The notes below the pieces were generated by a model, which worked only from the letters and a program-made list of their open reading frames with translations, did no database searches and was not told the DNA's origin. Below are positions 2,535-64,000 of a stretch of DNA of 64,000 nucleotides, one piece after another. Position 1 is the first letter of the stretch; every line of letters starts with the position of its first letter. This DNA comes from a virus. Its lineage: Duplodnaviria > Caudoviricetes. The stretch is from positions 1,622 through 65,621 of IMG/VR virus record IMGVR_UViG_3300042549_006840; one strand, written 5' to 3'. The translations under genes and the position numbers were made by a program.

Positions 2535-3278
2535 TCACCCAATCATGTCTGCAACAGGCAATGAGTAGCTGCTGATCATTTCTTGTTCTAGCTTCTCGAT
2601 AGCTTTTTCAGCATCATCTAAAATCTTTTCGCCGTTGAATTGAACACCCCCAGGAAGAACCATGCCTGTAAACTTTGTTAAGTTGGATCCCCACTGATAC
2701 TTAATCTTCTGTGTGGTGTATTCTTGCAACCAACGATCACCCCAAGCATTAGTATATGTGTCGGGGTCGATCACTTCGTATGCTTCAATCATTAAGAACT
2801 GACCAACATCAATCTTGGTCCAATCCATATCTACATGAAGCTTGTTGGTATGTCTGTTGTATCTAATAGGTTGCTGACCAACTAATAGTTCTGTAATAGT
2901 TCCTAGGTGCTGCATAGCCATATAATAAGGCAGCAGGGAAACAGTAGTCAGTTGATACAAATCGTTAAGGGCAATCTGGTAGCGAATGTTAAACATATCG
3001 CTAGCTCTGAGAGATGGATCACCAATTTGGAATATACGAATTGCTCCGATAATGTTTTCGGGCAATGTAATATATTTGTCGATCTTTGTTTGATCAGTAA
3101 TTAAGTGCTTATAATAAGTCTTCTCAGTTCCATCAAAGTGGTAATCCCAGTAATATCTAATACACTCATCAATTCTGTCGTCTACTTGATCATCATCGAC
3201 GTTAATTTCAATTACTGGTTTACCAAGTTTGCGTAGGCAATATTCTTTGAAGGTTGCTCTGCTTGTAGGTACAGCCAT
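2535..3278 (-). CDS. gp13: Neck protein
   Basis: YCLRKLGKPVIEINVDDDQVDDRI and KYQWGSNLTKF..LPGGVQFNG motifs. Confidence 0.93.
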   Translation of the reverse strand: MAVPTSRATFKEYCLRKLGKPVIEINVDDDQVDDRIDECIRYYWDYHFDGTEKTYYKHLITDQTKIDKYITLPENIIGAIRIFQIGDPSLRASDMFNIRYQIALNDLYQLTTVSLLPYYMAMQHLGTITELLVGQQPIRYNRHTNKLHVDMDWTKIDVGQFLMIEAYEVIDPDTYTNAWGDRWLQEYTTQKIKYQWGSNLTKFTGMVLPGGVQFNGEKILDDAEKAIEKLEQEMISSYSLPVADMIG

Positions 3279-13500: not shown

Positions 13501-15595
13501 GGACGCCTTGAGCTCCCTGTACACCTTGGAAGCCTTGAGTACCCTGCGCACCCTGGACGCCTTGGTAACCTTGATTACCTTGAGCTCCGACTTCACCTTG
13601 CACGCCTTGAGCACCCTGAACACCTTGGTGGCCTTGGACACCTTGTGCACCCTGAACGCCCTGAGCGCCTTGAACGCCCTGAGCTCCTTGTACGCCTTGC
13701 GCACCTTGAACTCCTTGAGCTCCCTGAACTCCTTGAGCTCCCTGAACTCCTTGAGCTCCCTGAACTCCTTGAGCTCCTTGAACGCCTTGGTAACCTTGGC
13801 TACCTTGAGCGCCTACTTCACCCTGAACGCCTTGTGCACCCTGAACGCCCTGTGCACCTTGAATACCCTGGAAGCCTTGAACACCCTGTGCTCCTTGAAC
13901 ACCTTGATAGCCTTGGTAACCCTGGGCACCTATTTCACCTTGAACACCCTGTGCACCTTGAACGCCTTGGAAGCCTTGTGCTCCAATAGCACCTTGGAAA
14001 CCTTGGAAACCTTGTGTACCCTGGGCACCCTGAATACCTTGGTAACCTTGCGTACCTTGAGCACCCTGGACGCCTTGAGCTCCCTGGACACCTTGGAAGC
14101 CTTGATCACCTTGAGCACCTACGTCACCTTGAACACCCTGGTGACCTTGTACGCCTTGTGCACCCTGAACACCCTGGGCACCTTGAACGCCTTGATAACC
14201 CTGGACACCCTGGTGACCCTGGACACCTTGGAAACCCTGAACACCCTGGTCACCCTGGACGCCTTGAGCACCCTGGACACCTTGGTGACCTTGTACACCC
14301 TGAGCACCTTGGACACCTTGAGCACCTTGAACACCTTGGTGACCTTGAACACCCTGTGCTCCTTGTACACCCTGTGCGCCTTGAACTCCTTGAGCTCCCT
14401 GTACACCTTGGTAACCTTGGACGCCTTGTGCACCCTGGACACCTTGGAAACCTTGAACACCCTGGTCACCTTGGAAACCCTGAGCGCCTTGAACTCCTTG
14501 ATGACCCTGAACGCCTTGAGCTCCTTGGACACCCTGGAAGCCCTGGACACCCTGAGCGCCTTGGACACCCTGGAAGCCCTGGACACCCTGAGCTCCTTGA
14601 ACACCTTGATGACCTTGAACGCCTTGAGCTCCTTGGACACCCTGGAAGCCCTGAGTACCTTGAGCACCTTGAACGCCTTGATAACCTTGGTTACCCTGGT
14701 CACCCTTATCACCAGTTCTTGTGAAAGAAATTACAGTGTTAGTGCCATTGGACCAAACATTGCTACCAGAAACGAACGCAATTGGAACGCTTGTATAATC
14801 ACTTAAATCTGTGTGGGTTCCAATAATGGAAAACTGTGCGTAGTGGTTGTTGTTCGCGATTTCAGTAATCTGGAACAAACCTTTGATTGCAGAAGTTGAA
14901 TCATCAATTGTCTGCAAGAAGTTATAAGCATTTGCACCAGGAGTGGTATTGTCCATCCAATCGATATAAAGATTGGCGGCTTGAGAGATATCAGCATTAC
15001 TGAATCTTACAGTACCTGTTCCTGGATCGGAATTTGTTGTTGTGGTATCGTACGTGTAGTTGAACGCTGCACCACTGAATGTACCAGTTGCACCTTGGTA
15101 ACCTTGAACACCCTGTGCACCCTGAACGCCTTGAGCGCCTTGAACACCCTGGTTACCCTGAGCACCTATTTCACCCTGGACACCTTGTGCACCCTGCACA
15201 CCTTGGTAACCTTGTGTACCTTGAGCGCCCTGGACACCCTGAGCTCCCTGTACACCTTGATTACCTTGAGCTCCGACTTCACCCTGAACGCCTTGTGCGC
15301 CTTGGACACCCTGGAAACCCTGTTGACCTACAGCACCCTGAACGCCTTGAAAGCCTTGAGCACCAATTACACCCTGGACACCTTGGAAGCCTTGAGTGCC
15401 TTGGGCACCCTGGACGCCTTGATAACCTTGCGCGCCAATTTCACCTTGGACACCCTGAGCACCCTGGAAACCTTGCGGTCCTGTGTTGGTGTTTACAATT
15501 TCCCAACCTGTACCATTATACTTCCATGTTCTGGAGCCTAATGAATATGTTTGATTATTAGCTGGTGATGATGGGAAGTCTAAAGATGTAGCCAT
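10565..15595 (-). CDS. Large collagen-like fibre protein (1676 aa) with three globular inserts and an S74-like chaperone
   Basis: Hundreds of G-X-Q triplets, three homologous inserts ending F(T/A)RTGD(K/M)G, and YYSDDRLKT...LIQAIKEL at the C-terminus. Confidence 0.87.
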   Translation of the reverse strand: MATSLDFPSSPANNQTYSLGSRTWKYNGTGWEIVNTNTGPQGFQGAQGVQGEIGAQGYQGVQGAQGTQGFQGVQGVIGAQGFQGVQGAVGQQGFQGVQGAQGVQGEVGAQGNQGVQGAQGVQGAQGTQGYQGVQGAQGVQGEIGAQGNQGVQGAQGVQGAQGVQGYQGATGTFSGAAFNYTYDTTTTNSDPGTGTVRFSNADISQAANLYIDWMDNTTPGANAYNFLQTIDDSTSAIKGLFQITEIANNNHYAQFSIIGTHTDLSDYTSVPIAFVSGSNVWSNGTNTVISFTRTGDKGDQGNQGYQGVQGAQGTQGFQGVQGAQGVQGHQGVQGAQGVQGFQGVQGAQGVQGFQGVQGAQGVQGHQGVQGAQGFQGDQGVQGFQGVQGAQGVQGYQGVQGAQGVQGAQGVQGAQGVQGHQGVQGAQGVQGAQGVQGHQGVQGAQGVQGDQGVQGFQGVQGHQGVQGYQGVQGAQGVQGAQGVQGHQGVQGDVGAQGDQGFQGVQGAQGVQGAQGTQGYQGIQGAQGTQGFQGFQGAIGAQGFQGVQGAQGVQGEIGAQGYQGYQGVQGAQGVQGFQGIQGAQGVQGAQGVQGEVGAQGSQGYQGVQGAQGVQGAQGVQGAQGVQGAQGVQGAQGVQGAQGVQGAQGVQGAQGVQGHQGVQGAQGVQGEVGAQGNQGYQGVQGAQGTQGFQGVQGAQGVQGAQGNDGNFGGASFDYTFLTNTTNSDPTTGKLKFDSATLNTATRLWIDDENDNTTDIQEFLRTIDDSSSTIKGHFRISKKFDSSAFALFTISAVNELSGYFEVDCAYVSGSSTTPFSNSDDVIITFARTGDMGAQGYQGVQGAQGVQGAQGVQGAQGVQGDQGVQGHQGVQGAQGVQGHQGVQGAQGVQGEVGVQGHQGVQGAQGVQGEVGAQGFQGVQGAQGTQGFQGVQGAQGVQGAQGVQGAQGVQGEIGAQGNQGYQGVQGAQGVQGHQGIQGAQGVQGEIGAQGYQGHQGVQGFQGVQGFQGVQGAQGVQGFQGVQGAQGVQGAQGVQGHQGVQGEIGAQGSQGYQGVQGAQGVQGVVGAQGFQGVQGAQGVQGAQGTQGFQGVQGAQGVQGAQGVQGTQGGVSITMQATAPTSPQYGDLWIDSNTGIEYTWFNDGNTDQWVELGNAGYMGNQGVQGAQGVQGAPGVFTGATFEYKYSTTTTNSDPGNGFLRFSNANIAAAANLYIDFLDNEVVAANVYNFLQTIDDSTSAIKGLFTISEIANLAHTAQFSITGLHTELSDYFSVPVAYVSGSNTWTNGTDISIAFTRTGDKGDQGVQGFQGVQGSQGVQGAQGVQGAQGVQGVLGAQGSTGTQGVQGAQGVQGAQGVQGAQGVQGHQGVQGTVGAQGVIGVQGAQGVQGAQGVQGAQGVQGVIGAQGNQGIQGAQGVQGVIGVQGAQGRQGDLGVQGAQGVQGAQGRQGAQGVQGVIGVQGAQGVQGATGAQGVVGAQGAQGRQGAQGVQGVLGAQGNQGIQGAQGVQGTIGAQGTVGAQGAIGAQGNQGVQGAAGAQGNQGVQGAGLTSGSSPQINSLGVNTAAGAQGEIRATGNITAYYSDDRLKTKVGDILEAVKKVQQLSGFYYTANDLAKSYGYQGELQIGVSAQEVEKILPMVVAPAPIDDRFLTVRYERIIPLLIQAIKELQDQIDTINKKIDN

Positions 15596-53870: not shown

Positions 53871-54178
53871 TTAAACACCAACAATGAGAGAAGGATCGAA
53901 TGAACGACAAAGCCAAAACCAATTGTTACGATGTTAATCATGTCTTTGAGGATTGCTGCTCGAACAAAGAACAAAGCTAAACCACCGTAAACAAACAATA
54001 CCATATCAATAGGAGGAAGCTTGTCATTGAAGCCTGTCATTACTGATAAGATTGTAGGAATGGTACAGGCGTGAATAAGGATCAAACCAATCCAAGATAA
54101 TGTCTCAGCAGTCGTGACTGTTAAACGTGTTTTGCAGAATGTAATAAACTGATGAATGTATTTGTCAAACTGTTCCAT
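53867..54178 (-). CDS. Small three-TM membrane protein (PQ-loop/SemiSWEET-like pattern)
   Basis: Three hydrophobic helices, with a Pro after TM1 (TIPTIL). Confidence 0.55.
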   Translation of the reverse strand: MEQFDKYIHQFITFCKTRLTVTTAETLSWIGLILIHACTIPTILSVMTGFNDKLPPIDMVLFVYGGLALFFVRAAILKDMINIVTIGFGFVVHSILLSLLVFK

Positions 54179-54180
54179 GA

Positions 54181-54714
54181 TTATTCCTTATAAAAAATGT
54201 GACGGCCAATCTTTGCTACTTTCTCTTTCTTCCAACCTGGATTAACATAGTCGGCATGATAGAACATCGCCTCCTTTAGTCCATCCAATCTGAAGTCTTC
54301 TAGTAGAACCTTTTTTGCTGCTGCAACAGATTCAGTGTAGTTAGGGCCATGGACTGGTTTCATCTTCCCAGCATTCTCGCAGTACCAGCTGAACTGGCAT
54401 ACGACCTTTTCCATGAATACGTTCTTTTGGTAAACTACCTTGCAAACGTCTGAGGGGAATTTGCCTGACTCAGCACGGTTGAGTGTTACCTGAGCTACAG
54501 CAACTTTACCTTCAAAAGGTTCTGAGCCTGCTTCGTAGTAAATGTTCTTAGAGAGACAATCTAACTGGCGCTCTCTCTCAGACGATGTCATTGAAGACAC
54601 ATTTACCTTGGTGTGTTTAAAATACTCAATCTTGTTGATGCTTACTTGTGTAATGATTGAGAGGACAAAAAATGCTCCCACTACAAACATAATGGGCTTC
54701 AAAAGTTTTTCCAT
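54181..54714 (-). CDS. Cell wall hydrolase, SleB family
   Basis: CLSKNIYYEAGSEP.EGKVAVAQVTLNR, CQFSW, FYHADYVNPGW and IGRHIFY. Confidence 0.92.
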   Translation of the reverse strand: MEKLLKPIMFVVGAFFVLSIITQVSINKIEYFKHTKVNVSSMTSSERERQLDCLSKNIYYEAGSEPFEGKVAVAQVTLNRAESGKFPSDVCKVVYQKNVFMEKVVCQFSWYCENAGKMKPVHGPNYTESVAAAKKVLLEDFRLDGLKEAMFYHADYVNPGWKKEKVAKIGRHIFYKE

Positions 54715-54730
54715 GATATCTCCTTATTGA

Positions 54731-55045
54731 GATGGGTTATTCTGTTACGAGGAAACCCATCGAAACCCTAGTCAGCGTTTAGGCTGCCAATGCGAAACGT
54801 TCATCGTTTGCAGTTACTTTGATTTGCTTTTAACGTCTACTCCTGACGAGTTGTCCACTTCTGTACTTGTAGCCCTGTCGAAACCATGTCAGGCCCATCA
54901 AAAGTATACTGGTTTAGATTATATGGATGTCCGTGATCCCTTAGTCATCTTCATTATCGCACGGCGCAGACCATTATACTTTTGGTGGACCTGGCGGAAA
55001 TCGAATCCGCGTCCAGAACTCTTTTCTAGTTACTTCGTACAACTA
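54731..55045 (-). ncRNA. ssrA: Circularly permuted (two-piece) tmRNA, tag ANDERFALAA
   Basis: The T-arm and CAGGTCCACCA end (ending at 54983) precede the 5' GGGCCTGAC...TTCGAC (starting at 54896); G3:U70 pair present; tag frame 54811-54779. Outer ends are approximate. Confidence 0.9.
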
Positions 55046-55053
55046 TAACATGG

Positions 55054-55386
55054 CTAAACATCTAGCCATGGCTTATATTTATTGATTCGTGGGCTAGAAG
55101 CGATTAAAACCAGCCAAGAACGCTTTCCAACCACGGTATCGACATAGTCCATCGGAACTGCGTGCACTCCTCTCTTATCGAAGTATTCACGGATGAAGTC
55201 CTTATGTTCTTCTACCCAACGATCAAACTTATACGACTTCTGATAGAATCGGAAGTGCTTAGTCTCAATAGTGTGCCAAAGCAGATTCAATGTACTAAGG
55301 ATACTGCCTTGCCAAAGAACAATATCCCCTGGGTACGACTCATCAGGCGTCAAGTTCTTCTTGATAATCTTCTTGGTACTCATCAT
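55054..55386 (-). CDS. Hypothetical protein
   Basis: ORF with start placed at MMSTKK. Confidence 0.5.
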   Translation of the reverse strand: MMSTKKIIKKNLTPDESYPGDIVLWQGSILSTLNLLWHTIETKHFRFYQKSYKFDRWVEEHKDFIREYFDKRGVHAVPMDYVDTVVGKRSWLVLIASSPRINKYKPWLDV

Positions 55387-55768
55387 AGTCCCCTTTTGTT
55401 TGGATTTCAATATCACCAAAAGTGATTAAGCCATCATTATACCCGACTTCAAAAGGACTGTCAAATGTGACCAAGTTGATGTATTCACTGGCACTGGTGT
55501 GTTTGTCAACCATTGCAACAGGGACGCAAGAGATGCAACCAGCATCAACGCCATACTCAAAACCAAACCCGTCACGATAACAACCGTCCCCATAAGCAGT
55601 ACTAAACACAGCAAAAGGAAGTTTGGTGACACTATCGATAAAAATGTTACCACGATCAGGAAGGCGATAACCGAAAAAATCAGTTTCTTCAAGAAGTCGG
55701 TCATACTTTTCGTCTCGGATAATGTAACATGGGTCAGCAATAAAATAGGTTCCAGCAGGTAAGCGCAT
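55343..55768 (-). CDS. Conserved phage hypothetical protein
   Basis: MRLPAGTYFIADPCY..TAYGDGCY..VDAGCI with an AGGAG RBS. Confidence 0.7.
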   Translation of the reverse strand: MRLPAGTYFIADPCYIIRDEKYDRLLEETDFFGYRLPDRGNIFIDSVTKLPFAVFSTAYGDGCYRDGFGFEYGVDAGCISCVPVAMVDKHTSASEYINLVTFDSPFEVGYNDGLITFGDIEIQTKGDYDEYQEDYQEELDA

Positions 55769-55778
55769 ATCGTTCTCC

Positions 55779-56729
55779 TTAAGCGGCTTCAGCAAATTCA
55801 ATAGCAGTCTCAAGAGCTTTGATCTTGAGGTTCTTGTTTGCACCAAACCAAGCTGATTGCAAACGTGTATCAGCAGTCTTACCAATCTTGTGATCAGTCA
55901 AGTACGTAACAGCATTGAATGCTTGCCACCAAGATCCCTCAGCATAGTTTGCACCAGGTTGTGTGTTAATAACTTCCAAAGCACGAGTAGCACTTTTTGA
56001 TAACTCTTTGCGTTGAGGACCCTTCTCTTTGTTGTAAACCAGGACTGGAAACACTTCTTTGAAGTACTCAGCCAGTTTGTCCTGTGTATACCGCTTTGAG
56101 CCAAGGAAACTAGCCATTTCTTTGTACTTGGCGAGCTTCTCAGTAGCTATTCCTAGTTGCTCTTTTACCTGGGAAGGATCAAAGACAGTTCTATGGTTCT
56201 TTTTGACGACACGTTCGGAGTGCTCCTTTAGTGCTAACGTCAAAGTATTGTTACAAACAACACGGATCGGTGTAAAGCGAACATCGATACACTGACCAAA
56301 CTTATGAGGATTTGTAAACAGAAGATATGAATCGACTTGGTCGCCTTTGAACAACTCAAACGAATCTTTTACTTTAGCGAGAGCCCAAACGATTTGACCA
56401 TCGCGGAGTGAACCAGCAGTGTTCATCTCCATATCACCAGCATCGCAGTATTCTGAAAAGAATTGGAATGCTTCGTGATTCTGTACTGGGTTCCAATCAC
56501 TGGAAACCACATCGAGTACTTTGTTATCGGTAGAACGAACAAGAGCAGAGACGCCCACGTTAACACTCTTACCATCAATTTTAGAGAATGCAGGAATCTT
56601 GTCTACTGTCCAGTCAAGATCTGCGGCTTTCAGCATCTGCTCGGGAGATAAGTCTGCAGGGACTTTCTTACCCAAACTGTGCCAGGGAGTTTCGCCAGTG
56701 TAAGCCATTGTTTCAATCATATGTGCCAT
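55779..56729 (-). CDS. DUF932 family protein
   Basis: MAH.IETMAY.GETPWH.LG, PVQN.EAF, TPIRVVCNNTL and WQAFNAVT. Confidence 0.88.
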   Translation of the reverse strand: MAHMIETMAYTGETPWHSLGKKVPADLSPEQMLKAADLDWTVDKIPAFSKIDGKSVNVGVSALVRSTDNKVLDVVSSDWNPVQNHEAFQFFSEYCDAGDMEMNTAGSLRDGQIVWALAKVKDSFELFKGDQVDSYLLFTNPHKFGQCIDVRFTPIRVVCNNTLTLALKEHSERVVKKNHRTVFDPSQVKEQLGIATEKLAKYKEMASFLGSKRYTQDKLAEYFKEVFPVLVYNKEKGPQRKELSKSATRALEVINTQPGANYAEGSWWQAFNAVTYLTDHKIGKTADTRLQSAWFGANKNLKIKALETAIEFAEAA

Positions 56730-56761
56730 AATGTATGTCCTTAATTAGTTGCGGTAGGTCT

Positions 56762-56790
56762 ATTATAACGTGTTTCCGAGAAACAGTCAA
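56762..56790 (-). promoter_or_regulatory. Sigma70-type early promoter
   Basis: TTGACT-17 nt-TATAAT. Confidence 0.8.
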
Positions 56791-56806
56791 CAGTTATTTT
56801 GGTAGG

Positions 56807-57076
56807 TCAAACACCTAAACCCATCCCTGCGAGGATGAAGTTCTGAGCCTTTGTAAGGATGAATTCCTTACTAGCAGTAGGCTTATTCATTTGGTCAATA
56901 ATAGCCAGTTTCATGGGTTGCTTGCCGCCCCCAGCCATAATGACTCCCTCTGCAAAGATCTTGAAGTCTTCTTTGTTCATAGTGCTGAATGCATTGTACA
57001 GCTCTTTGAGAGCGTCATTGCCCAACGTATCGTTTTGCAGACGTGGCTTGGAGGAGGTTTGAGTCTTCAATTGCAT
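56807..57076 (-). CDS. Hypothetical early protein
   Basis: ORF from MQLKTQ to NFILAGMGLGV. Confidence 0.6.
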   Translation of the reverse strand: MQLKTQTSSKPRLQNDTLGNDALKELYNAFSTMNKEDFKIFAEGVIMAGGGKQPMKLAIIDQMNKPTASKEFILTKAQNFILAGMGLGV

Positions 57077-57077
57077 T

Positions 57078-57266
57078 TCAAGACTCACTCTCTTCACTGA
57101 GGATGAATTGAACTACTTCGTATGCATCGTCACCGAATTCGTTGAGTACCAAATCCATGATGCGGTCATTGGAAACACCAGATGTAATCAGATCGTAAGT
57201 CATTGAGCTGATCTCGTGCTCGATGTTCTGATCCATCATAAGGTAGTGTTGCTTTGTTCTAAACAT
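57078..57266 (-). CDS. Hypothetical early protein
   Basis: 62-aa acidic ORF directly after a promoter. Confidence 0.55.
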   Translation of the reverse strand: MFRTKQHYLMMDQNIEHEISSMTYDLITSGVSNDRIMDLVLNEFGDDAYEVVQFILSEESES

Positions 57267-57293
57267 ATTGATCCCTTTTGTTTGTGGTAAACG

Positions 57294-57322
57294 ATTATAC
57301 CATGAGACCGAAAAAAAGGCAA
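57294..57322 (-). promoter_or_regulatory. Sigma70-type early promoter
   Basis: TTGCCT-17 nt-TATAAT. Confidence 0.75.
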
Positions 57323-57325
57323 CTT

Positions 57326-57970
57326 TTAGTTTTTTACACTTGTTAAATTTAAAACAGTTTCACCGTTATCACCAAAAAGAGTGGAGCAGGGGAAGTAGCT
57401 AACAACCAAAGAAGACCTCAACAAATCAGAGGTATTTTTTTGAACAAAGTGGTAGCATGTTGATGGAAATATAAGAAGGTCTAATTCTTCCGGAATAACA
57501 ATATACATTGCAGAATTAAAAACATTTCTTTCTGTGTAATTTAATATAATTTCTCTACTAATAGGTGAATGAGAAAAGGATTGATCAAAAACAATGCCAC
57601 CTGAGTTTGGAGGCACTTTTAAATACAATACACAACTGAATAAACTGTTGTCATGTTTGTGTGTTTGGGCATAGTCACCAGGATAATGGTAATTAACAAA
57701 AGATCCAACAATAGAAAATTTTATCTCTGGATCAATTTTTAAAATATCATATGCATATTGATAAAATTTTTCATCTATCTGTGATTTTAAAGAAGACATC
57801 TGATTATGTTCCAAAAGATTACTACCGTTGGATCTATAACCGTTAGATGCTCCATACCTTCTTTTTTCTAAATTATTTACAAAGTCAATTTCTTTTTGTT
57901 CAATGAAATCTATTTTAGTTTTCATTAAAGGATAAGAAAACAACGGAATCATGTAATTTTCATTATGCAT
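57326..57970 (-). CDS. Putative 2OG-Fe(II) oxygenase (TIGR02466-like)
   Basis: PLFSYP, HKH, SCVLYL, LLIFPS..YH.V and R.S; AT-rich. Confidence 0.78.
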   Translation of the reverse strand: MHNENYMIPLFSYPLMKTKIDFIEQKEIDFVNNLEKRRYGASNGYRSNGSNLLEHNQMSSLKSQIDEKFYQYAYDILKIDPEIKFSIVGSFVNYHYPGDYAQTHKHDNSLFSCVLYLKVPPNSGGIVFDQSFSHSPISREIILNYTERNVFNSAMYIVIPEELDLLIFPSTCYHFVQKNTSDLLRSSLVVSYFPCSTLFGDNGETVLNLTSVKN

Positions 57971-57971
57971 G

Positions 57972-58160
57972 TCAGACCTCAGAAAAGCCTTCAGAATCAA
58001 ATATAAAGTATTCGTGAAGCTGGTTTAGTATTTCATTTTCAACATTTTCAGCAATCACTTCACGAGAAGGATTGTCATCATGTTTGTACGAACGGTTCAA
58101 TCCAAATTGGATTCCACGCTCAATACAGTCGGTGAGGATAGGGTAAAACTTAGGTTTCAT
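57972..58160 (-). CDS. Hypothetical protein
   Basis: CIERGIQFGLNRSYKH.DNP ORF. Confidence 0.6.
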   Translation of the reverse strand: MKPKFYPILTDCIERGIQFGLNRSYKHDDNPSREVIAENVENEILNQLHEYFIFDSEGFSEV

Positions 58161-58170
58161 ATTTTCTTTC

Positions 58171-58260
58171 TGGTGGAACGACTGAGACTCGAACTCAGAT
58201 ACCTGCTTTCACAAGTCGACGGCTTAGCAAGCCGCTCCAATACCGTTATGGGACCGTTCC
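58171..58260 (-). tRNA. trnS: tRNA-Ser(GCT)
   Basis: Cloverleaf, loop TTGCTAA, long variable arm, encoded CCA. Confidence 0.9.
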
Positions 58261-58267
58261 ATTATAC

Positions 58268-58462
58268 TCAGCTTTTGTTTTCAAACAACATTTGCGGACC
58301 TTGGTCTAAACATTCTTCTGTTGATAGAACATCTTGGTATTCATTTTTGAATACTGCTTCATCAAACTTTTGAAGGTCTCTACCAAAAATGGCATCCCAT
58401 CTGTTATTGTACTCTTCTTGAGTTACACTGTATGGACGTGGCTTACTTCCTTTACCTGACAT
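58268..58462 (-). CDS. Small hypothetical protein
   Basis: MSGKGSKPRPYSV...NRWDAIFG, a recurrent small phage ORF type; AGGA RBS. Confidence 0.65.
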   Translation of the reverse strand: MSGKGSKPRPYSVTQEEYNNRWDAIFGRDLQKFDEAVFKNEYQDVLSTEECLDQGPQMLFENKS

Positions 58463-58482
58463 AACAATTCCTTTAATAATAT

Positions 58483-58574
58483 TGGCGGAAAGCAGAGGAG
58501 TTGAACCCCATCCCATTTCTGAGAACCTGGTTTTCAAGGCCAGTCGCAGGACCAACCCCGCTGCATTACTTTCC
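58483..58574 (-). tRNA. trnS: tRNA-Ser(TGA)
   Basis: Loop CTTGAAA, long variable arm, GCCA end. Confidence 0.88.
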
Positions 58575-58581
58575 ATATGTA

Positions 58582-58656
58582 TGGTGCCGAAGAAAGGATT
58601 TGAACCCTCAACCTTCGCTTTACAAGAGCGCTGCACTACCATTGTGCTACTTCGGC
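58582..58656 (-). tRNA. trnT: tRNA-Thr(TGT)
   Basis: Loop CTTGTAA, ACCA end. Confidence 0.9.
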
Positions 58657-58663
58657 TAAATTA

Positions 58664-58738
58664 TGGCATCCCCCAAGAGACTCGAACTCTTTCTACACGG
58701 TTTTGGAGACCGGCGTGCTGCCATTACACTAGGGAGAA
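58664..58738 (-). tRNA. trnW: tRNA-Trp(CCA)
   Basis: Loop CTCCAAA, GCCA end. Confidence 0.87.
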
Positions 58739-58744
58739 ACAAAT

Positions 58745-58821
58745 TGGACCGTCTGGAGGAACTCGAATCCCCAACCACTTATTTCGTAGACAAGCGCTCT
58801 AATCCATTGAGCTACAGACGG
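58745..58821 (-). tRNA. trnR: tRNA-Arg(ACG)
   Basis: Loop CTACGAA, acceptor CCGTCTG/CAGACGG. Confidence 0.9.
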
Positions 58822-58827
58822 ATATAT

Positions 58828-58902
58828 TGGTACCTGGTGACAGTTTCGAACTGCCGACCCGCTGCGTGTAAAGCAGCCGCTCTACCACTGAGCTAACCAG
58901 GC
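58828..58902 (-). tRNA. trnV: tRNA-Val(TAC)
   Basis: Loop TTTACAC, ACCA end. Confidence 0.92.
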
Positions 58903-58903
58903 A

Positions 58904-58978
58904 TGGTGGATGAAGGTGGATTCGAACCACCGACCTGCGCCGTATGAAGACGTTGCACTACCGCTGTGCTATTCATCC
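58904..58978 (-). tRNA. tRNA with CAT anticodon (elongator Met or Ile2)
   Basis: Loop TTCATAC, acceptor GGATGAA/TTCATCC. Confidence 0.85.
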
Positions 58979-58979
58979 A

Positions 58980-59053
58980 TGGAGCGGGTAGCGAGAATCG
59001 AACTCGCAAATAAACCTTGGCAAGGTTTCAGGTTACCTTTACATCATACCCGC
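58980..59053 (-). tRNA. trnG: tRNA-Gly(GCC)
   Basis: Loop TTGCCAA, GCG/CGC acceptor, U73. Confidence 0.9.
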
Positions 59054-59713
59054 TTCATTAATATCCAAATAAAAATTAATGATAACAGCTATTCTAAAAT
59101 CATTACTGGTATTAACCGTATCCCCAACCTCGTGCTTTAAATATGAAGGGAATATAATCATATGATCGTCCTTTGGTATGTATTCACAAGATGGACTAAA
59201 AGCTGAAAGACTCAAGCAATCGTTAGAAATAACATTTTCATAAAAAGTTTCATAAAAATTATTTAAATACTGCCCAAAAATCAAAGGATTTTGAAAAATA
59301 AGTTTTTTATTATTTTTTCCTACGCTAAGATAATGAACTGCAGAAAAGAAAGCGCGGCCATCACCAGTATGGTGATGGCTAACCATATTCCCCTCATCTC
59401 CTTTAAAAACTGTCAAATTTACAATTTTAAATGAATATTGGACTTTCTTTTTAAAATTAAAATTCAATAAAAAATCATCAAATAATGTTTTGTAAACAGG
59501 TAGTAGAGAAGATAAATCTATTTTTATGAAATCGGAATTATTCCAGTCTTTGTAATAGTGATGTAGAACAGAGTCTTCACTCCATGAGTTTCTTAGAGGT
59601 TTTATTTTATAATTTTGAATAGCCGTTTTCACAATATTTGATTTATCATAATGGTTCGGATCAATTGTTAATGAATATAAAGTAGTCGGAAACAGATTTG
59701 TTTTTTGAAACAT
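59039..59713 (-). CDS. Putative 2OG-Fe(II) oxygenase (TIGR02466-like)
   Basis: LFPT, HHH, SAVHYL, IIFPSYLKHEV and RIAVIINF; very AT-rich; stop codon lies inside tRNA-Gly. Confidence 0.78.
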   Translation of the reverse strand: MFQKTNLFPTTLYSLTIDPNHYDKSNIVKTAIQNYKIKPLRNSWSEDSVLHHYYKDWNNSDFIKIDLSSLLPVYKTLFDDFLLNFNFKKKVQYSFKIVNLTVFKGDEGNMVSHHHTGDGRAFFSAVHYLSVGKNNKKLIFQNPLIFGQYLNNFYETFYENVISNDCLSLSAFSPSCEYIPKDDHMIIFPSYLKHEVGDTVNTSNDFRIAVIINFYLDINEAGMM

Positions 59714-59732
59714 AAAATACCTTAAAAATAAA

Positions 59733-59817
59733 TGGTGCCCCCCAAGAGACTCGAACTCTCACACCTTTCGATACTGGAATCTAAATCCAGCGCGGCTACC
59801 GATTACGCCAAAGGGGC
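59733..59817 (-). tRNA. trnL: tRNA-Leu(TAG)
   Basis: Loop TTTAGAT, long variable arm. Confidence 0.9.
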
Positions 59818-59825
59818 AAATATTT

Positions 59826-59901
59826 TGGGCAGAAGTATGGGAATCGAACCCATATTAACGGAATCACAATCCGTGGTGTTAACCTTTACACTAACAACTG
59901 C
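59826..59901 (-). tRNA. trnH: tRNA-His(GTG)
   Basis: Loop TTGTGAT, G-1:C73; two U:U mismatches in the acceptor stem. Confidence 0.85.
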
Positions 59902-60080
59902 ATAGAATCATAGGATGGCACACCAGGGAATCGAACCCCATTGCTAGCTTGTTCCAAACGACCGGTGCGACCGGCGGTGTGACATCCAATGACACCATAT
60001 AAAAACACACTGACGCAATCTAACGGTTATTGTCGTTTAAGTACTCTTGTCCGAAGTACGGTACTCAATGTGCTTTTATA

Positions 60081-60156
60081 TGGTACGAGTAGGGGGATTC
60101 GAACCCACGACCAATAGATTAAAAGTCTACTGCTCTACCAACTGAGCTATACTCGC
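60081..60156 (-). tRNA. trnK: tRNA-Lys(TTT)
   Basis: Loop CTTTTAA, canonical D and T arms. Confidence 0.93.
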
Positions 60157-60267
60157 ATTATGTTGTCGACGCAATGCCTTGTTAGACTTGCGATGAATTC
60201 CTGCTTTACGGAACAGTGCTAGACGAACGAAGCAGTTACGTTCGCGCACGATTTTCTTTCGTTTCAT
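60127..60267 (-). CDS. Small highly basic protein (46 aa) whose stop codon lies inside tRNA-Lys
   Basis: MKRKKIVRERNCFVRLALFRKAGIHRKSNKALRRQHNASIAQLVEQ with an AAGGT RBS. Confidence 0.65.
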   Translation of the reverse strand: MKRKKIVRERNCFVRLALFRKAGIHRKSNKALRRQHNASIAQLVEQ

Positions 60268-60287
60268 ACAATACCTTTAAAATTGAA

Positions 60288-60361
60288 TGGCAGAGGGTAC
60301 TGGGATCGAACCAGTGATAACAGAGTCAAAGTCTGGTGTGTTACCGCTACACTAACCCCCA
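60288..60361 (-). tRNA. trnQ: tRNA-Gln(TTG)
   Basis: Loop CTTTGAC, GCCA end. Confidence 0.9.
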
Positions 60362-60368
60362 ACAAAAA

Positions 60369-60442
60369 TGGTCTCGGTAGGAAGAATCGAACTTCCGTCT
60401 CATGGTCCCAAACCACGAATTCTGCCATTAAACTACACCGAG
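60369..60442 (-). tRNA. trnP: tRNA-Pro(TGG)
   Basis: Loop TTTGGGA, C1:G72, A73. Confidence 0.9.
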
Positions 60443-60490
60443 AGTGGACTGACAACTTATCACATTGTACTCCGTCAGTCAAGGAGATTT

Positions 60491-60575
60491 TGGTGGAGAT
60501 GACAGGGATCGAACCTGTTGTGACATAAGTCGGAAGATTTACAGTCTCCTGCCATACCATTACGGCGGCATCTCC
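60491..60575 (-). tRNA. trnY: tRNA-Tyr(GTA)
   Basis: Loop CTGTAAA, long variable arm. Confidence 0.9.
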
Positions 60576-60579
60576 AAAA

Positions 60580-60654
60580 TGGAAGAGCGACGGGGAATCG
60601 AACCCCGCTTCTTAGGATGAAAACCTAATGTCCTAACCGATAGACGACCGCTCC
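60580..60654 (-). tRNA. trnE: tRNA-Glu(TTC)
   Basis: Loop TTTTCAT, D arm GTCTATCGGTTAGGAC. Confidence 0.9.
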
Positions 60655-60950
60655 ATATTTTTGTTGTGACGCCTGGTCGCAATCTCCAGGTGAGTCTCCG
60701 CAACCGAAAAGGATCGGTCCGTACACACTATAGCCAATGAATTCATCACAACAAAAATTAGGATCAGGCCACTTACCCTCGTAAGCCCCTGAATGAGTTG
60801 TTACCCTGTCCACCGGTTTAACTGTAACGGTTCGGATCCGTCTTGTGATTTCTCAAGTCGCTCTCAATCGAGCCTTGCGGGTGATCATCAACCGAGCTCT
60901 TAAGGTGTTGCAATTCCCTAACTCTATAACGCTGAGTTAACGCGAGGTTC

Positions 60951-61027
60951 TGGAGTAGGTGACAGGGATCGAACCTGCATGATACGGATTTGCAATCCGG
61001 TGCCTAACCATTCAGCTACACACCTAC
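60951..61027 (-). tRNA. trnC: tRNA-Cys(GCA)
   Basis: Loop TTGCAAA, U73. Confidence 0.9.
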
Positions 61028-61034
61028 ACAAAAC

Positions 61035-61110
61035 TGGCTCCTCGACCTGGGCTCGAACCAGGGACAACTTGATTAACAGTCAAGTGCTCTACCAACTGAG
61101 CTATCAAGGA
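61035..61110 (-). tRNA. trnN: tRNA-Asn(GTT)
   Basis: Loop CTGTTAA, GCCA end. Confidence 0.93.
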
Positions 61111-61115
61111 ATAAT

Positions 61116-61190
61116 TGGTTGCGGAGGCTGGAATCGCACCAGCGATCTTCAGGTTATGAGCCTGACGGATTACTACTTTCCTACTCCGCG
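61116..61190 (-). tRNA. trnM: Initiator tRNA-fMet(CAT)
   Basis: CGCGG start, C1:A72 mismatch, loop CTCATAA. Confidence 0.88.
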
Positions 61191-61197
61191 ATAAACT

Positions 61198-61273
61198 TGG
61201 CGGACTTGACGAGTTTTGATCTCGCTGCCTCTGGCGTGACAAGCCAGTGCTCTCCCGATTGAGCTACAAGTCC
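61198..61273 (-). tRNA. trnD: tRNA-Asp(GTC)
   Basis: Loop TTGTCAC, G73; atypical T-loop ATCAAAA. Confidence 0.88.
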
Positions 61274-61674
61274 AAAATCCCTGCATGTACTTTGTTGTGG
61301 CAATTACTACACAAACACACACATTTTTCTAATTCATTAAGTAGGCGTTCCCATTTAAAATGAACTGAAGCGCCTATTGTAAACTCCTTTTGAGAAGAGT
61401 CAACATGGTGGAACTCTAGACAACAATTTTCTTCTTCACCACATACAACGCAACTCAAAGTCGATTTGTAATCTTCCAATAGTTGTTTATGCCTGATACG
61501 TCGCTCATTGTTGCGAGCATTATATTTTTCTGCATACTTTGTAGAGTAGTTGCTTCTATGCTTCTCACGAGCACAAATCTTACAAAAAGGTTGGAAACCA
61601 TCCTTCTTAGATTTGTCTTTACGAAACTCATTAGAGTCTTTTTCTGCTTTACAGCAAGAACATATTTTCTTCAT
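61264..61674 (-). CDS. HNH endonuclease with N-terminal Cys zinc-binding motif
   Basis: CSCC..CKIC, then CVVCG..LEFHH...LCSNCHNKVH. Confidence 0.88.
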   Translation of the reverse strand: MKKICSCCKAEKDSNEFRKDKSKKDGFQPFCKICAREKHRSNYSTKYAEKYNARNNERRIRHKQLLEDYKSTLSCVVCGEEENCCLEFHHVDSSQKEFTIGASVHFKWERLLNELEKCVCLCSNCHNKVHAGILDL

Positions 61675-61742
61675 AAATCCTCCTAAATGTATTTAGGGTT
61701 CGCAACTTTTCAGAAATTGAACCCTACATTTAGGATAATATT

Positions 61743-61817
61743 TGGTGGAGACCGTCGGTATCGAACCGATCTAGACATTTTCCTTGCAAGGGAAAACCGT
61801 AGCCCTCTACTGCCCCC
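61743..61817 (-). tRNA. trnA: tRNA-Ala(TGC) with reduced D-loop
   Basis: Loop CTTGCAA, G3:U70, A73, D arm GTAG-AGGG-CTAC. Confidence 0.8.
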
Positions 61818-62151
61818 TAATATTATAGTAAAGTGCTATCTGCCGATTTGTCAAAATGTAGCTAACACAGACAAGCGAATAGCGGTTATATTAGGACCTG
61901 TTCCTCGCACAGTTAGGCCCGCATAGTGTACACGTCTGCACACGATACCCTGATAACACTTTACTATAATACCATTAGAAAACACACTGGCAAATCCCTT
62001 CCTGAGTTATGCATTTGCTCTGCGCACTCTTGTTATCACGTATTCCTTGGACTTGAGATCTAACTCTGGAATGCAAACCCTGTTAAATGAGTTACCTCAT
62101 TCGGCCTGACTGACATCCATCCGCAACGGTACTGGGCAGTGTGTTTACTAA

Positions 62152-62225
62152 TGGTATCCGGTAGAGGTAACGATCCTCTGTCTATGGCTTATCAAGCCAT
62201 TGCTCTTCCTTTGAGCTAACCGGAC
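62152..62225 (-). tRNA. trnI: tRNA-Ile(GAT)
   Basis: Loop TTGATAA, ACCA end; atypical T-loop ATCGTTA. Confidence 0.87.
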
Positions 62226-62288
62226 ACATAATGAAACCTAAATTTTAAAAGAACTCTTCTTATAGGAGTCTCGATCGACCCACTACGT

Positions 62289-62316
62289 ATTATACCCAGA
62301 TCTCATTTTGAGTCAA
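62289..62316 (-). promoter_or_regulatory. Sigma70-type promoter directly upstream of the tRNA array
   Basis: TTGACT-16 nt-TATAAT. Confidence 0.65.
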
Positions 62317-62352
62317 CAGGTTTGTCAACTTTATTTTTAGATCAACGCTAAT

Positions 62353-62384
62353 AAAAAACCCCAGGCTCTTTCGAGGCTGGGGTC
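62353..62384 (-). terminator. Intrinsic terminator (attenuator hairpin)
   Basis: GACCCCAGCCTC-GAAA-GAGCCTGGGG followed by TTTTTT. Confidence 0.88.
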
Positions 62385-62411
62385 TTGTATTAGAGCTGGA
62401 CTTTGTGCTCT

Positions 62412-62516
62412 TTACACGACCCCTACAGTATCCCAGCTATTTTCACACGCAAAGATACCATAGCCTGTTGAGGGCTGGTGCTTCGGCATTGAAATGGCTG
62501 ACAGTGTAAATTGCAC
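62412..62516 (-). CDS. Putative leader peptide (34 aa)
   Basis: GGAG RBS, GTG start, MQFTLSAISMPKHQPSTGYGIFACENSWDTVGVV; lies between a promoter and the terminator. Confidence 0.7.
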   Translation of the reverse strand: MQFTLSAISMPKHQPSTGYGIFACENSWDTVGVV

Positions 62517-62547
62517 AAAATTCTCCGTTGTTGTTTGTATATAGTCT

Positions 62548-62576
62548 ATTATCTTCTAAAAGCCCAAAAAGGTCAA
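62548..62576 (-). promoter_or_regulatory. Sigma70-type promoter for the leader
   Basis: TTGACC-17 nt-GATAAT. Confidence 0.6.
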
Positions 62577-62869
62577 CAGTATAAATCTACTTTTGTACCC
62601 AATTGGATGTTTTTATTTTCTTGTAGCTCAAAAGTCCTACGCTGAAACAAGTACAACTCCATATCTTTATACTGATTGTAAATTCTCTGATTCCTAGCTA
62701 TTCTTTGTTCTTCGTTGTATCTGTTCAGCTTGTAAGCTTCAACAACCTTCTCTTCTTCTTTTATTTTCTGTCTGCGATCGGTAAGCTGTTGCGCACGAAC
62801 TTGATCTAACTGTTGCTCATACAATCTAGAAGCGTATCCAGTGTTATTGGATACTTTTTCTATTTGCAT
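62573..62869 (-). CDS. Hypothetical coiled-coil protein
   Basis: MQIEKVS...LGTKVDLYC. Confidence 0.6.
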   Translation of the reverse strand: MQIEKVSNNTGYASRLYEQQLDQVRAQQLTDRRQKIKEEEKVVEAYKLNRYNEEQRIARNQRIYNQYKDMELYLFQRRTFELQENKNIQLGTKVDLYC

Positions 62870-63126
62870 TTTACTTTGTCGATTAAGTCGCATGCGGCTT
62901 TAGCGTAACGAATATCATAAATGCAGTCCAGTAACTCCAGCTCTTGCATAATTAATTCGGTAGTCTTTGCTTGGAACAGTTCTTGAGCATACAGTAGGTC
63001 ATCTACTGACGCAGTATCGTACCATTCCAGCAAAGTTTGATGGTCAACCTTCAACAAAAAGTCCAAATTTCTTTGGTCCCTTTCGTTCATTCTGTAAGAT
63101 TGCACTTTTTTTGAATTGTTTTTCAT
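62860..63126 (-). CDS. Hypothetical protein
   Basis: MNERDQRNLDFLL..DDLLYAQEL; true start may be 63090. Confidence 0.6.
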   Translation of the reverse strand: MKNNSKKVQSYRMNERDQRNLDFLLKVDHQTLLEWYDTASVDDLLYAQELFQAKTTELIMQELELLDCIYDIRYAKAACDLIDKVKCK

Positions 63127-63304
63127 TTTTTGAGCGACATTTCAATAAAATCATTCATCCTGAAAGGAAATATTGATAATTTCAATTCAGGATTACTCTT
63201 TTTTAAATCTTTTGCGCGAGATTCGGCCATTTGCGTGTTATGGAAAAATCCATAAACGATCATTGTTGACTTATCGTACACAAAATAGAACATTTAACCT
63301 CTAC

Positions 63305-63607
63305 TTACTTGCAAAAACGCTTGGCGTTGTAGAAGTATGTAGTAGCTCCAGCATCACTCATGCCGAGTTCGGTCTTGATATCAGCAATTACGGCCTTACG
63401 GTTACCGCTATGACGCTGGAAAATAGCCATAGCCGCTTCTTGCTTCGTACCAGCACGCTTCACACGCTCTTTAGGCTCAGTAGATTTAGCTACTTTTGCA
63501 GGTTTCTTAGGCATAGCAGCGAATTTAGCACTGATCTCAGCAGCGGGAATAGAGTTAACATTGAATACAGAAGAGATAGTATCAATAGTTTCTTGAGAAA
63601 TGGTCAT
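63305..63607 (-). CDS. Hypothetical early protein, possibly DNA-binding
   Basis: Lys/Ala-rich linker, then TKQEAAMAIF..LGMSDAGATTYFYNAKR. Confidence 0.65.
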   Translation of the reverse strand: MTISQETIDTISSVFNVNSIPAAEISAKFAAMPKKPAKVAKSTEPKERVKRAGTKQEAAMAIFQRHSGNRKAVIADIKTELGMSDAGATTYFYNAKRFCK

Positions 63608-63636
63608 AATAAAGTCCTTAGTTAGTTGGAATATCA

Positions 63637-63665
63637 ATTATACAATGGTTTGGCCAAAAAGTCAA
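63637..63665 (-). promoter_or_regulatory. Sigma70-type early promoter
   Basis: TTGACT-17 nt-TATAAT. Confidence 0.8.
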
Positions 63666-63668
63666 CAG

Positions 63669-63902
63669 TTATTTTAACAGTTTTTCTAGCCGGGCAACGA
63701 TTTCGGCGCGTGTACACGCAACAATTCCTTGTTGGAACGTGGTGTAAGCACAACCAGAATCGGTAATTTTAGCTTGGTCTATGCAAAGTTGGATAATTTG
63801 CTGGGCAAATTTCTCAATTGCGGCAGAATCCCAGGAATCTGGAGTACCATCACAGTACATTCCTGTGTTGTAAGCGATCTTATCTATTAGTTCATTCATC
63901 AT
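63669..63902 (-). CDS. Hypothetical protein
   Basis: MNELIDKIA..IEKFAQQIIQLC, a small phage ORF type. Confidence 0.6.
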   Translation of the reverse strand: MMNELIDKIAYNTGMYCDGTPDSWDSAAIEKFAQQIIQLCIDQAKITDSGCAYTTFQQGIVACTRAEIVARLEKLLK

Positions 63903-64000
63903 TTTATCCAGTAAAATTAGGCATGCTCATTCTCCAAGGTTAAAATTGTAGCAGGGTACATAATCTTACCATCATACTCCAACTGACTCTGCTCGAAGTC

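Follow-up and report, generated by a model that had tools for sequence, protein, structure and literature searches.

Why phages carry large sets of tRNA genes, and how these sets are regulated, are open questions. Recent work (PMC10264068, PMC11464382) links phage tRNAs to escape from tRNA-cleaving defences. The stretch of DNA analysed here (the window, 64,000 nucleotides (nt)) makes up the bulk of an IMG/VR virus record of 65.6 kb with an estimated completeness of 39% and carries, on its minus strand, 19 tRNA genes and a permuted transfer-messenger RNA (tmRNA). At the head of the tRNA array stand a promoter, a short open reading frame (ORF) and an intrinsic terminator, raising the question of whether translation of the ORF could govern transcription of the array. 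Our answer, drawn from sequence comparison and fold modelling, is that the element is quite probably a ribosome-mediated attenuator with a leader ORF designed to call for almost all of the amino acids. The design is kept in dozens of related uncultured viruses, which suggests that the virus gauges the whole tRNA supply before making tRNAs of its own.

Parts of the element and its alternative hairpins

The upstream promoter (P1), the GGAG sequence, the 34-codon ORF, the terminator and the tRNA array named in the original prediction were all found on the minus strand where it had placed them, as was a second promoter (P2) downstream of the terminator (11/12 consensus at 62316-62289). The features of the window are as follows.

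62548-62576, minus strand: promoter P1, TTGACC-17-GATAAT (10/12 consensus); its -35 hexamer overlaps the stop codon of an upstream 106-residue ORF
62523-62526, minus strand: GGAG Shine-Dalgarno (SD) sequence, 6 nt upstream of the GTG start
62412-62516, minus strand: leader ORF, GTG start, 34 codons plus TAA
62504-62521, minus strand: segment 1, start codon and codons 2-5
62433-62503, minus strand: variable central part of the ORF, with 20 of 22 variable alignment columns and mostly non-synonymous changes
62413-62423, minus strand: segment 2, the antiterminator 5' arm GGGGTCGTGTA, formed by the three final sense codons plus the first two stop-codon bases
62379-62423, minus strand: whole antiterminator hairpin, -20.2 kcal/mol, inner AGAGC/GCTCT helix included
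62353-62384, minus strand: intrinsic terminator, GACCCCAGCCTC, loop GAAA, GAGCCTGGGG and T tract, -19.4 kcal/mol
62289-62316, minus strand: promoter P2, TTGACT-16-TATAAT, between the terminator and the first tRNA
62152-62225, minus strand: tRNA-Ile(GAT), first of the 19 tRNA genes of the array, which extends to 58171

Folding bore out the proposed antiterminator, in which GGGGTC-G-TGTA pairs with TACA-A-GACCCC and the AGAGC/GCTCT helix extends the structure. The terminator 5' arm doubles as an antiterminator arm, GACCCC being common to both, and the two structures, when compared, were mutually exclusive and of similar predicted stability (-20.2 kcal/mol for the antiterminator vs -19.4 kcal/mol for the terminator). 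The nascent transcript, with the 3' terminator arm not yet made, folds as the antiterminator. When the 75 nt upstream were dinucleotide-shuffled 200 times, this alternative pairing of the terminator arm was equalled only once, which places it above chance. The fold of the whole transcript (z = -5.25) has its 5' and 3' ends paired. There, segment 1 pairs with segment 2 and with the stretch behind the stop codon (UUUUGUGC/GCACAAAG; UUUACAC/GUGUAAA) and GGAG with CUCU at 62395-62392, the SD and start region of the finished transcript being paired to the stop region.

In his/trp-type attenuation, a ribosome at the stop codon masks the antiterminator, and stalling further upstream permits read-through. 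The element would work in the same manner. Transcription would begin at P1 and a ribosome would translate the 34-codon leader; arriving at the stop codon in step with RNA polymerase, it would cover the GGGGUCGUGUA arm, upon which the downstream GACCCC would join the terminator hairpin and the transcript would stop at the T tract. If the ribosome were slowed at any codon by a scarce charged tRNA, the arm would remain free to pair with UACAAGACCCC; with the antiterminator formed, there would be no terminator, and RNA polymerase would continue into the tRNA genes. When a leader of the window lineage is not being translated, its start region could also pair with the arm, favouring termination. We infer that translation chooses between the hairpins and that tRNA supply is the signal. 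Since almost none of the 20 amino acids is missing from a leader, phage tRNA synthesis would rise whenever nearly any tRNA ran short, be it through host anticodon nucleases or through host shut-off. As extra tRNA would relieve a loss of tRNA and not amino-acid starvation, the signal would be tRNA depletion or cleavage.

Conservation in close and divergent relatives

A neighbouring-protein search and exact-pattern scans yielded nine close relatives (L002, L005, L124, L125, L127, L128, L129, L130, L132). The leader ORF is intact in all nine that cover it, its changes being mostly non-synonymous. An alignment of eight sequences revealed columns 1-26 and 98-180 to be almost invariant, with 20 of the 22 variable columns in the middle; the near-invariant columns hold the SD sequence, the start codon, the first and the last codons, the antiterminator and the terminator. 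GGAG is invariant in 8/8 aligned relatives, both P1 hexamers are kept across a spacer that varies, and P2 is conserved. The protein adjacent to the element of L005 is only 61% identical. Because the ends are invariant, RNAalifold detected no double-sided covariation among the close relatives. Loci L004, L126 and L131 were chance pattern matches and not relatives; a loose pattern scan gave more than 118 matches, almost all by chance, and the 2-oxoglutarate (2OG)-Fe(II) oxygenase of the window, used as a search anchor, retrieved no relatives.

For distant relatives, a DUF932 protein served as the anchor, giving 80 loci whose tRNA array heads were scanned. Diverged elements were present at the array heads in L146, L186, L155 and L181, each retaining the ORF and the pairing. 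Searches seeded from these elements added others, some in records G001 and G002 and some next to a conserved upstream protein, which brought the set to 13 sequences from about ten lineages (the window group, L146, L186, L220, L221, L225, L223, L232, L234, L235 and L181). All 13 have an ORF of 30-43 codons with its stop codon 21-33 nt upstream of the terminator 5' arm, and in all 13 a nascent hairpin pairs the ORF end with the terminator arm, stabilising the fold by 5.1-18.2 kcal/mol. The antiterminator hairpins alone fold at -12.6 to -22.8 kcal/mol. When the upstream 75 nt were dinucleotide-shuffled, 0-4 of 200 shuffles equalled the observed pairing in 11 of the 13 sequences, the exceptions being L146 (13/200) and L181 (20/200). 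As a control, 44 other terminator-like sites of 18 loci were evaluated, two of which attained 12.8 kcal/mol. In an end-anchored register, several standard pair types occur at helix positions 2 and 6-10.

The position of the ribosome was modelled by masking. A 30-nt mask over the stop codon abolished the antiterminator in 9 of the 13 sequences, and masks at codons 5-20 left it standing. For L146, the antiterminator formed only if the first ~10 codons were masked, which is like the classical trp scheme.

A degenerate pattern for the terminator common to two subgroups retrieved a larger family of 72 IMG/VR loci (L241-L312). Five of these had less than 200 nt upstream and were dropped; the 67 analysed loci comprise 49 unique sequences. 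In every one of the 67, a frame stays open for 31 codons or more and closes 24-34 nt upstream of the arm, and the antiterminator stabilisation is 9.3-21.0 kcal/mol. The stop codon of all members, divergent lineages included, falls within the antiterminator 5' arm or directly behind it. Homologues that keep the terminator yet lose the ORF and the pairing, named in the original prediction as the finding that would count against it, were not seen among these loci, both being kept in 67/67. Pairs were counted in the fold of each individual sequence, because the MAFFT alignments A4, A6 and A7 misregister the 5' arm. Counted in this way in the nascent folds, the terminator CCCC is paired with an upstream GGGG in 47-49 of the 49 unique sequences, the two positions just 5' of CCCC covary between C-G (33 sequences) and U-A (10-14), and five further helix positions mix G-C, A-U and U-A pairs. 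The terminator helix was found in all 20 aligned members. Short codon-diverse ORFs with covarying antiterminator/terminator pairs, for which a search upstream of the tRNA arrays of related phages had been proposed, are present there.

A covariance model (R1) was built from the 49 family members with the window group excluded. In the window it matched only 62351-62437 (27.7 bits, E = 0.0025 over 135.9 kb), a match that depends largely on the terminator; it also matched the elements of L181, L186, L146 and L005. As to the spacing of promoters and leader starts, the leader ATG lies ~4-10 nt past the -10 hexamer in L250 (4429-4465), L272 (3520-3561) and L249 (6124-6165) and at the leader starts of L232, L234 and L235.

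Linkage to tRNA arrays

A same-strand tRNA follows 60-1682 nt downstream of 41 of the 49 unique elements, usually belonging to an array (5-24 tRNAs in 3 kb); the contigs of the remaining eight end within 63-839 nt downstream of the element. In four relatives, the arrays span all 20 amino-acid kinds.

The element's strand was scanned for promoters between the terminator and the first tRNA. None was found in 7 of the 10 other lineages checked (L220, L232, L235, L181, L257, L250, L272); L249 has one weak 9/12 promoter-like site, and in L263 the scanner found nothing at all. In L220, L221, L232 and L181 a tRNA starts ~2-33 nt past the T tract. With no recognisable downstream promoter, sigma-70-type transcription of the array must cross the switch in the seven lineages, and control of the array is cleaner in such relatives than in the window.

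Contigs from four RNA-library runs map to 58000-64000 of the window: one contig of run X1 (62199-62536) spans the terminator and P2, one of X4 covers 62399-62590, one of X5 62394-62525 and one of X3 62123-62339. Transcript ends, strand and level cannot be read from these contigs, the libraries may contain DNA, and gaps between contigs are uninformative.

Amino-acid composition of the leader peptides

A count confirmed that the window peptide holds 19 kinds of amino acid (Arg is absent) and 29 distinct codons; random peptides of 34 residues attain 19 kinds in 1.1-1.8% of draws. Twelve of the first 13 peptides hold 18-20 kinds in 30-43 residues, where ~15-17 are expected from phage-protein frequencies and from random codons at the base composition of each ORF. 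The comparison was extended to 54 unique peptides of 30-52 residues, comprising the 49 family members and those of the window, L005, L146, L186 and L181. All 20 amino acids are present in 40 of the 54 (0.43 expected) and at least 19 in 47 (3.9 expected). Shuffling residues within alignment columns gave 4.1 ± 1.9 all-20 peptides with a maximum of 11, and draws from the family's own composition gave 1.4; neither procedure attained 40 in any of 2000 trials.

Rare residues are held at about one copy, Cys being present in 98% of the peptides (26% expected), Trp in 96% and His in 94%; the amino acid most often missing is Val. Cys, His, Tyr, Phe and Met shift over 18-25 alignment columns, Cys over 25 of them. 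Trp is positionally fixed, occurring in only 3 columns, and belongs to a widely conserved motif, W ... N-D-R-T/A-P-E (W ... DRTPE). Variability is equal at the three codon positions (0.56, 0.53 and 0.57), and the median ratio of non-synonymous to synonymous changes (pN/pS) over 884 pairs is 0.87, indicating near-neutral drift of the peptide; in subgroup B the ratio is lower (0.35-0.40). Together, the all-20 composition and the near-neutral drift seem to reflect selection on having every amino acid and not on the protein. The earlier idea that such a leader would sample almost the whole tRNA pool is backed by this composition.

Weighing of the attenuator reading and its alternatives

Observed here are the parts of the element and how they are conserved, the covariation of the alternative hairpin, the site of the stop codon, the all-20 peptides and a strict association with tRNA arrays. 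Several points, however, weigh against the proposed mechanism. P2 lies after the terminator, so the window array does not depend on read-through, and owing to P2 the attenuator is at most a modulator of array expression in the window; P2-like sites were also seen by eye after the terminator in L146, L186, L223, L225 and L234. With the stop region masked, the terminator arm of the window lineage is still not free in the fold; CCCAGC can then find a partner in GCUGGG (62437-62432). At full length, the minimum-energy fold contains the terminator in every case, so that the model relies on co-transcriptional kinetics. SD sequences are weak or absent in many members, and since some ORFs begin near the predicted transcript start, several members may be leaderless mRNAs. 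Starts were assigned by a rule that took the longest ATG ORF of up to 55 codons and cut it back to the consensus Met. Codons that the phage tRNAs can read show no enrichment in the leaders (67-80% vs a background of 61-83%). The membership of L181 is weak, given its 16 amino-acid kinds and the 20/200 shuffles mentioned above. The family sequences are related, and counts among them are therefore not independent events. Finally, part of the W ... DRTPE motif coincides with a conserved RNA helix, in which the Trp codon region (UUGGU) pairs with the Thr-Pro codons (ACCAG; columns 103-107 and 145-149 of alignment A8), and the motif is thus explicable by RNA without a peptide function.

The alternative that survives best is an attenuator that is likewise coupled to translation and reads another signal, be it the tightness of coupling, ribosome availability after host shut-off or arrest by the nascent peptide, with the all-20 composition as a by-product. 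All evidence from the architecture applies to it equally. It would also accommodate the leader codons that do not match the phage tRNAs, the fixed Trp, and the conserved motif, which we take to bear a likeness to arrest peptides of the TnaC or SecM type. As a by-product, however, the composition cannot be explained, with 40 of 54 all-20 peptides against 4.1 in column-preserving shuffles, nor can rare residues held at about one copy in shifting positions; the overall pN/pS of 0.87 speaks against it as well, and the pairing of the Trp and Thr-Pro codons in the conserved helix explains the motif. We regard this alternative as unlikely.

Less probable still, and to our judgement rather improbable, is an ordinary small early gene for a protein of 30-50 residues followed by an ordinary terminator, where the second hairpin would serve mRNA stability or processing and the proximity of tRNAs would reflect the layout of the early region. 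Small ORFs abound in T4-like early regions, no member lacks the ORF, one subgroup has the lower pN/pS, and P2 gives the window tRNAs a promoter of their own. Against this stand the family-wide pN/pS without third-position excess, an all-20 composition with positional turnover that is unexpected for a folded micro-protein, and a hairpin that covaries and vies with the terminator for the same bases. The peptides match no Pfam or PHROG family. Layout alone also sits badly with the 7 of 10 other lineages that have no promoter-like site before their tRNAs, in four of which the tRNAs lie 2-58 nt past the T tract.

A small structured RNA that stands alone, with a promoter and a terminator of its own and a fortuitous ORF, is very improbable: the strong structure with paired ends that sequester the SD sequence and start codon, the invariant ends of the close relatives around a middle with mostly non-synonymous changes, and the divergence of the protein neighbouring the element in L005 would fit it, but there is no non-coding reason for an open frame in 67/67 loci, all 20 amino acids in frame and a stop codon held at the antiterminator arm are left unexplained, and no Rfam family matches. 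A structured non-coding RNA was favoured after the first folds and was dropped on the conserved frame and the all-20 composition in distant relatives.

Relation to known regulatory systems

In its structure, the element matches a leader-peptide attenuator. As in the amino-acid-operon attenuators (trp, his, leu, thr, ilv, phe), a promoter-proximal ORF is followed by an intrinsic terminator and a base-sharing antiterminator, an upstream segment can sequester the antiterminator arm, and the stop codon is set so that a terminating ribosome would block the antiterminator. It differs in the defining codon enrichment and in the target genes. In attenuators, the regulatory codons are cognate to the amino acid of the operon, as stated in PMC1183508, whereas the phage leader has no regulatory codon run and holds about one to a few codons for each of the 20 amino acids. 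The absence of a codon run for one regulated amino acid is the feature that makes the element a variant attenuator. Furthermore, it is viral, it would control tRNAs and not biosynthetic enzymes, and several of its members seem to be leaderless.

Ribosome-mediated attenuators responsive to general translation stress, among them antibiotic-responsive leaders (Bacillus subtilis bmrB-bmrCD, mef/mel; PMC4191407, PMC4335068), resemble the proposed phage switch in that a short ORF without specific codon runs leads to read-through when the ribosome is slowed. They differ in that the ribosomes are stalled by drugs and the targets are efflux or resistance genes, and they have no sequence relation to the phage element. 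We know of no all-20 composition described for such leaders. T-box riboswitches would share the monitoring of tRNA status to decide between terminator and antiterminator; unlike the phage element, they bind one specific uncharged tRNA directly and without an ORF, and no T-box was matched with Rfam in 10 kb of the window or in ten family loci. As with Sinorhizobium rnTrpL/peTrpL, a small RNA and peptide that derive from an attenuator and act in trans (PMC7968998, PMC7298713), the terminated leader could persist as a structured RNA. That of the window is predicted to be very stable and to hide its own SD sequence; it may build up as a stable RNA without conflict with the attenuator reading.

Database searches revealed no described counterpart. 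Rfam returned only tRNA, tmRNA and weak sub-threshold terminator matches for window positions 54000-64000, and only tRNA and tmRNA for the ten family loci. Eight leader peptides matched no family in Pfam and PHROGs, with one PHROG match at E = 0.2, and a wide protein search yielded only 10 clusters, with 'hypothetical protein' as the sole name. Among cultured phages, blastn of the window region gave only tRNA-Ile matches, in two Xanthomonas phages and in unrelated context; tblastn of a 438-residue window protein for cultured relatives gave nothing, and two family leaders had no blastn match among 50,697 phage records. In the T4-like phages Cr30, phiM12, DLP_6, HTVC008M and Melnitz, the best R1 match had E = 0.31. 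A full-text literature search, which probably does not cover older papers on the T4 tRNA region, found no attenuator or all-amino-acid leader before phage tRNA genes, and a term search of PMC10264068 showed no such attenuator or leader described in it.

We consider it fairly likely that the element represents a new attenuator class, in which a leader selected for holding all 20 amino acids reports the entire aminoacyl-tRNA pool and gates a complete viral tRNA set.

Phage background and neighbouring features

The window encodes T4-type baseplate proteins gp6 and gp8 and a gp59-like helicase loader. The closest cultured relatives are far off, the gp6-like protein being 40% identical to that of Caulobacter phage Cr30. 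The permuted two-piece tmRNA (54688-55092, minus strand; 134.8 and 125.9 bits; tag peptide ANDERFALAA) is of the betaproteobacterial type, which hints at a betaproteobacterial host; a tmRNA is also present in the relatives L005 (6250-6660) and L181 (6347-6715). Near the array lies the DUF932 protein (55779-56729, minus strand), which has at least 520 IMG/VR relatives, with 66-98% identity among the 80 best, and is a useful marker of this phage group.

Directly before the first tRNA, an A/T-rich motif of the type CTCTTT-AAAA-TTT is present in all lineages, with or without a second promoter (window 62232-62250, minus strand; L155 ~2750-2775; L146 ~14207-14235; L234 ~3222-3240); it may be a processing or leader signal. 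After tRNA-Ile, ~330 nt of non-coding sequence (window ~61830-62151, minus strand) are kept in the close relatives L002 (1198-1530) and L005 (911-1243) and may represent another stable RNA of the tRNA region; part of this stretch is overlapped by a contig of RNA-library run X1 at 61893-62190. Between tRNA-Ile and tRNA-Asp, the window has an ORF of 136 residues (61264-61674, minus strand), rich in Cys and His and without a Pfam match, at the position of tRNA-Ala in L002 (1531-1605) and L005 (1244-1318). ARAGORN called no tRNA-Ala in the window, and from its position the ORF looks like an insertion, perhaps a homing-endonuclease-like gene, replacing or displacing a tRNA. A gap of the array (58487-58574, minus strand) gave a tRNA-Sec-like Rfam match below threshold (33.4 bits vs a gathering score of 47) and may be a long-arm tRNA uncalled by ARAGORN. 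A pair of paralogues resembling 2OG-Fe(II) oxygenase genes (PF13759) is situated within the array (59039-59713, minus strand) and just after it (57326-58000, minus strand).

Implications

Among uncultured T4-like phages of freshwater, this design recurs widely. For the annotation of phage genomes, it provides a signature consisting of an all-20 small ORF, a switch and then a tRNA array. If the proposed mechanism is true, it would constitute a new regulatory logic in which one ORF of 30-50 codons reads all 20 aminoacyl-tRNA species, selection acting on composition and not on sequence, and any single missing amino acid would turn the terminator off. Such a leader would offer synthetic biology a compact, general reporter of translation capacity, and the phages themselves would gain a demand-driven answer to tRNA-cleaving host defences or to host shut-off.

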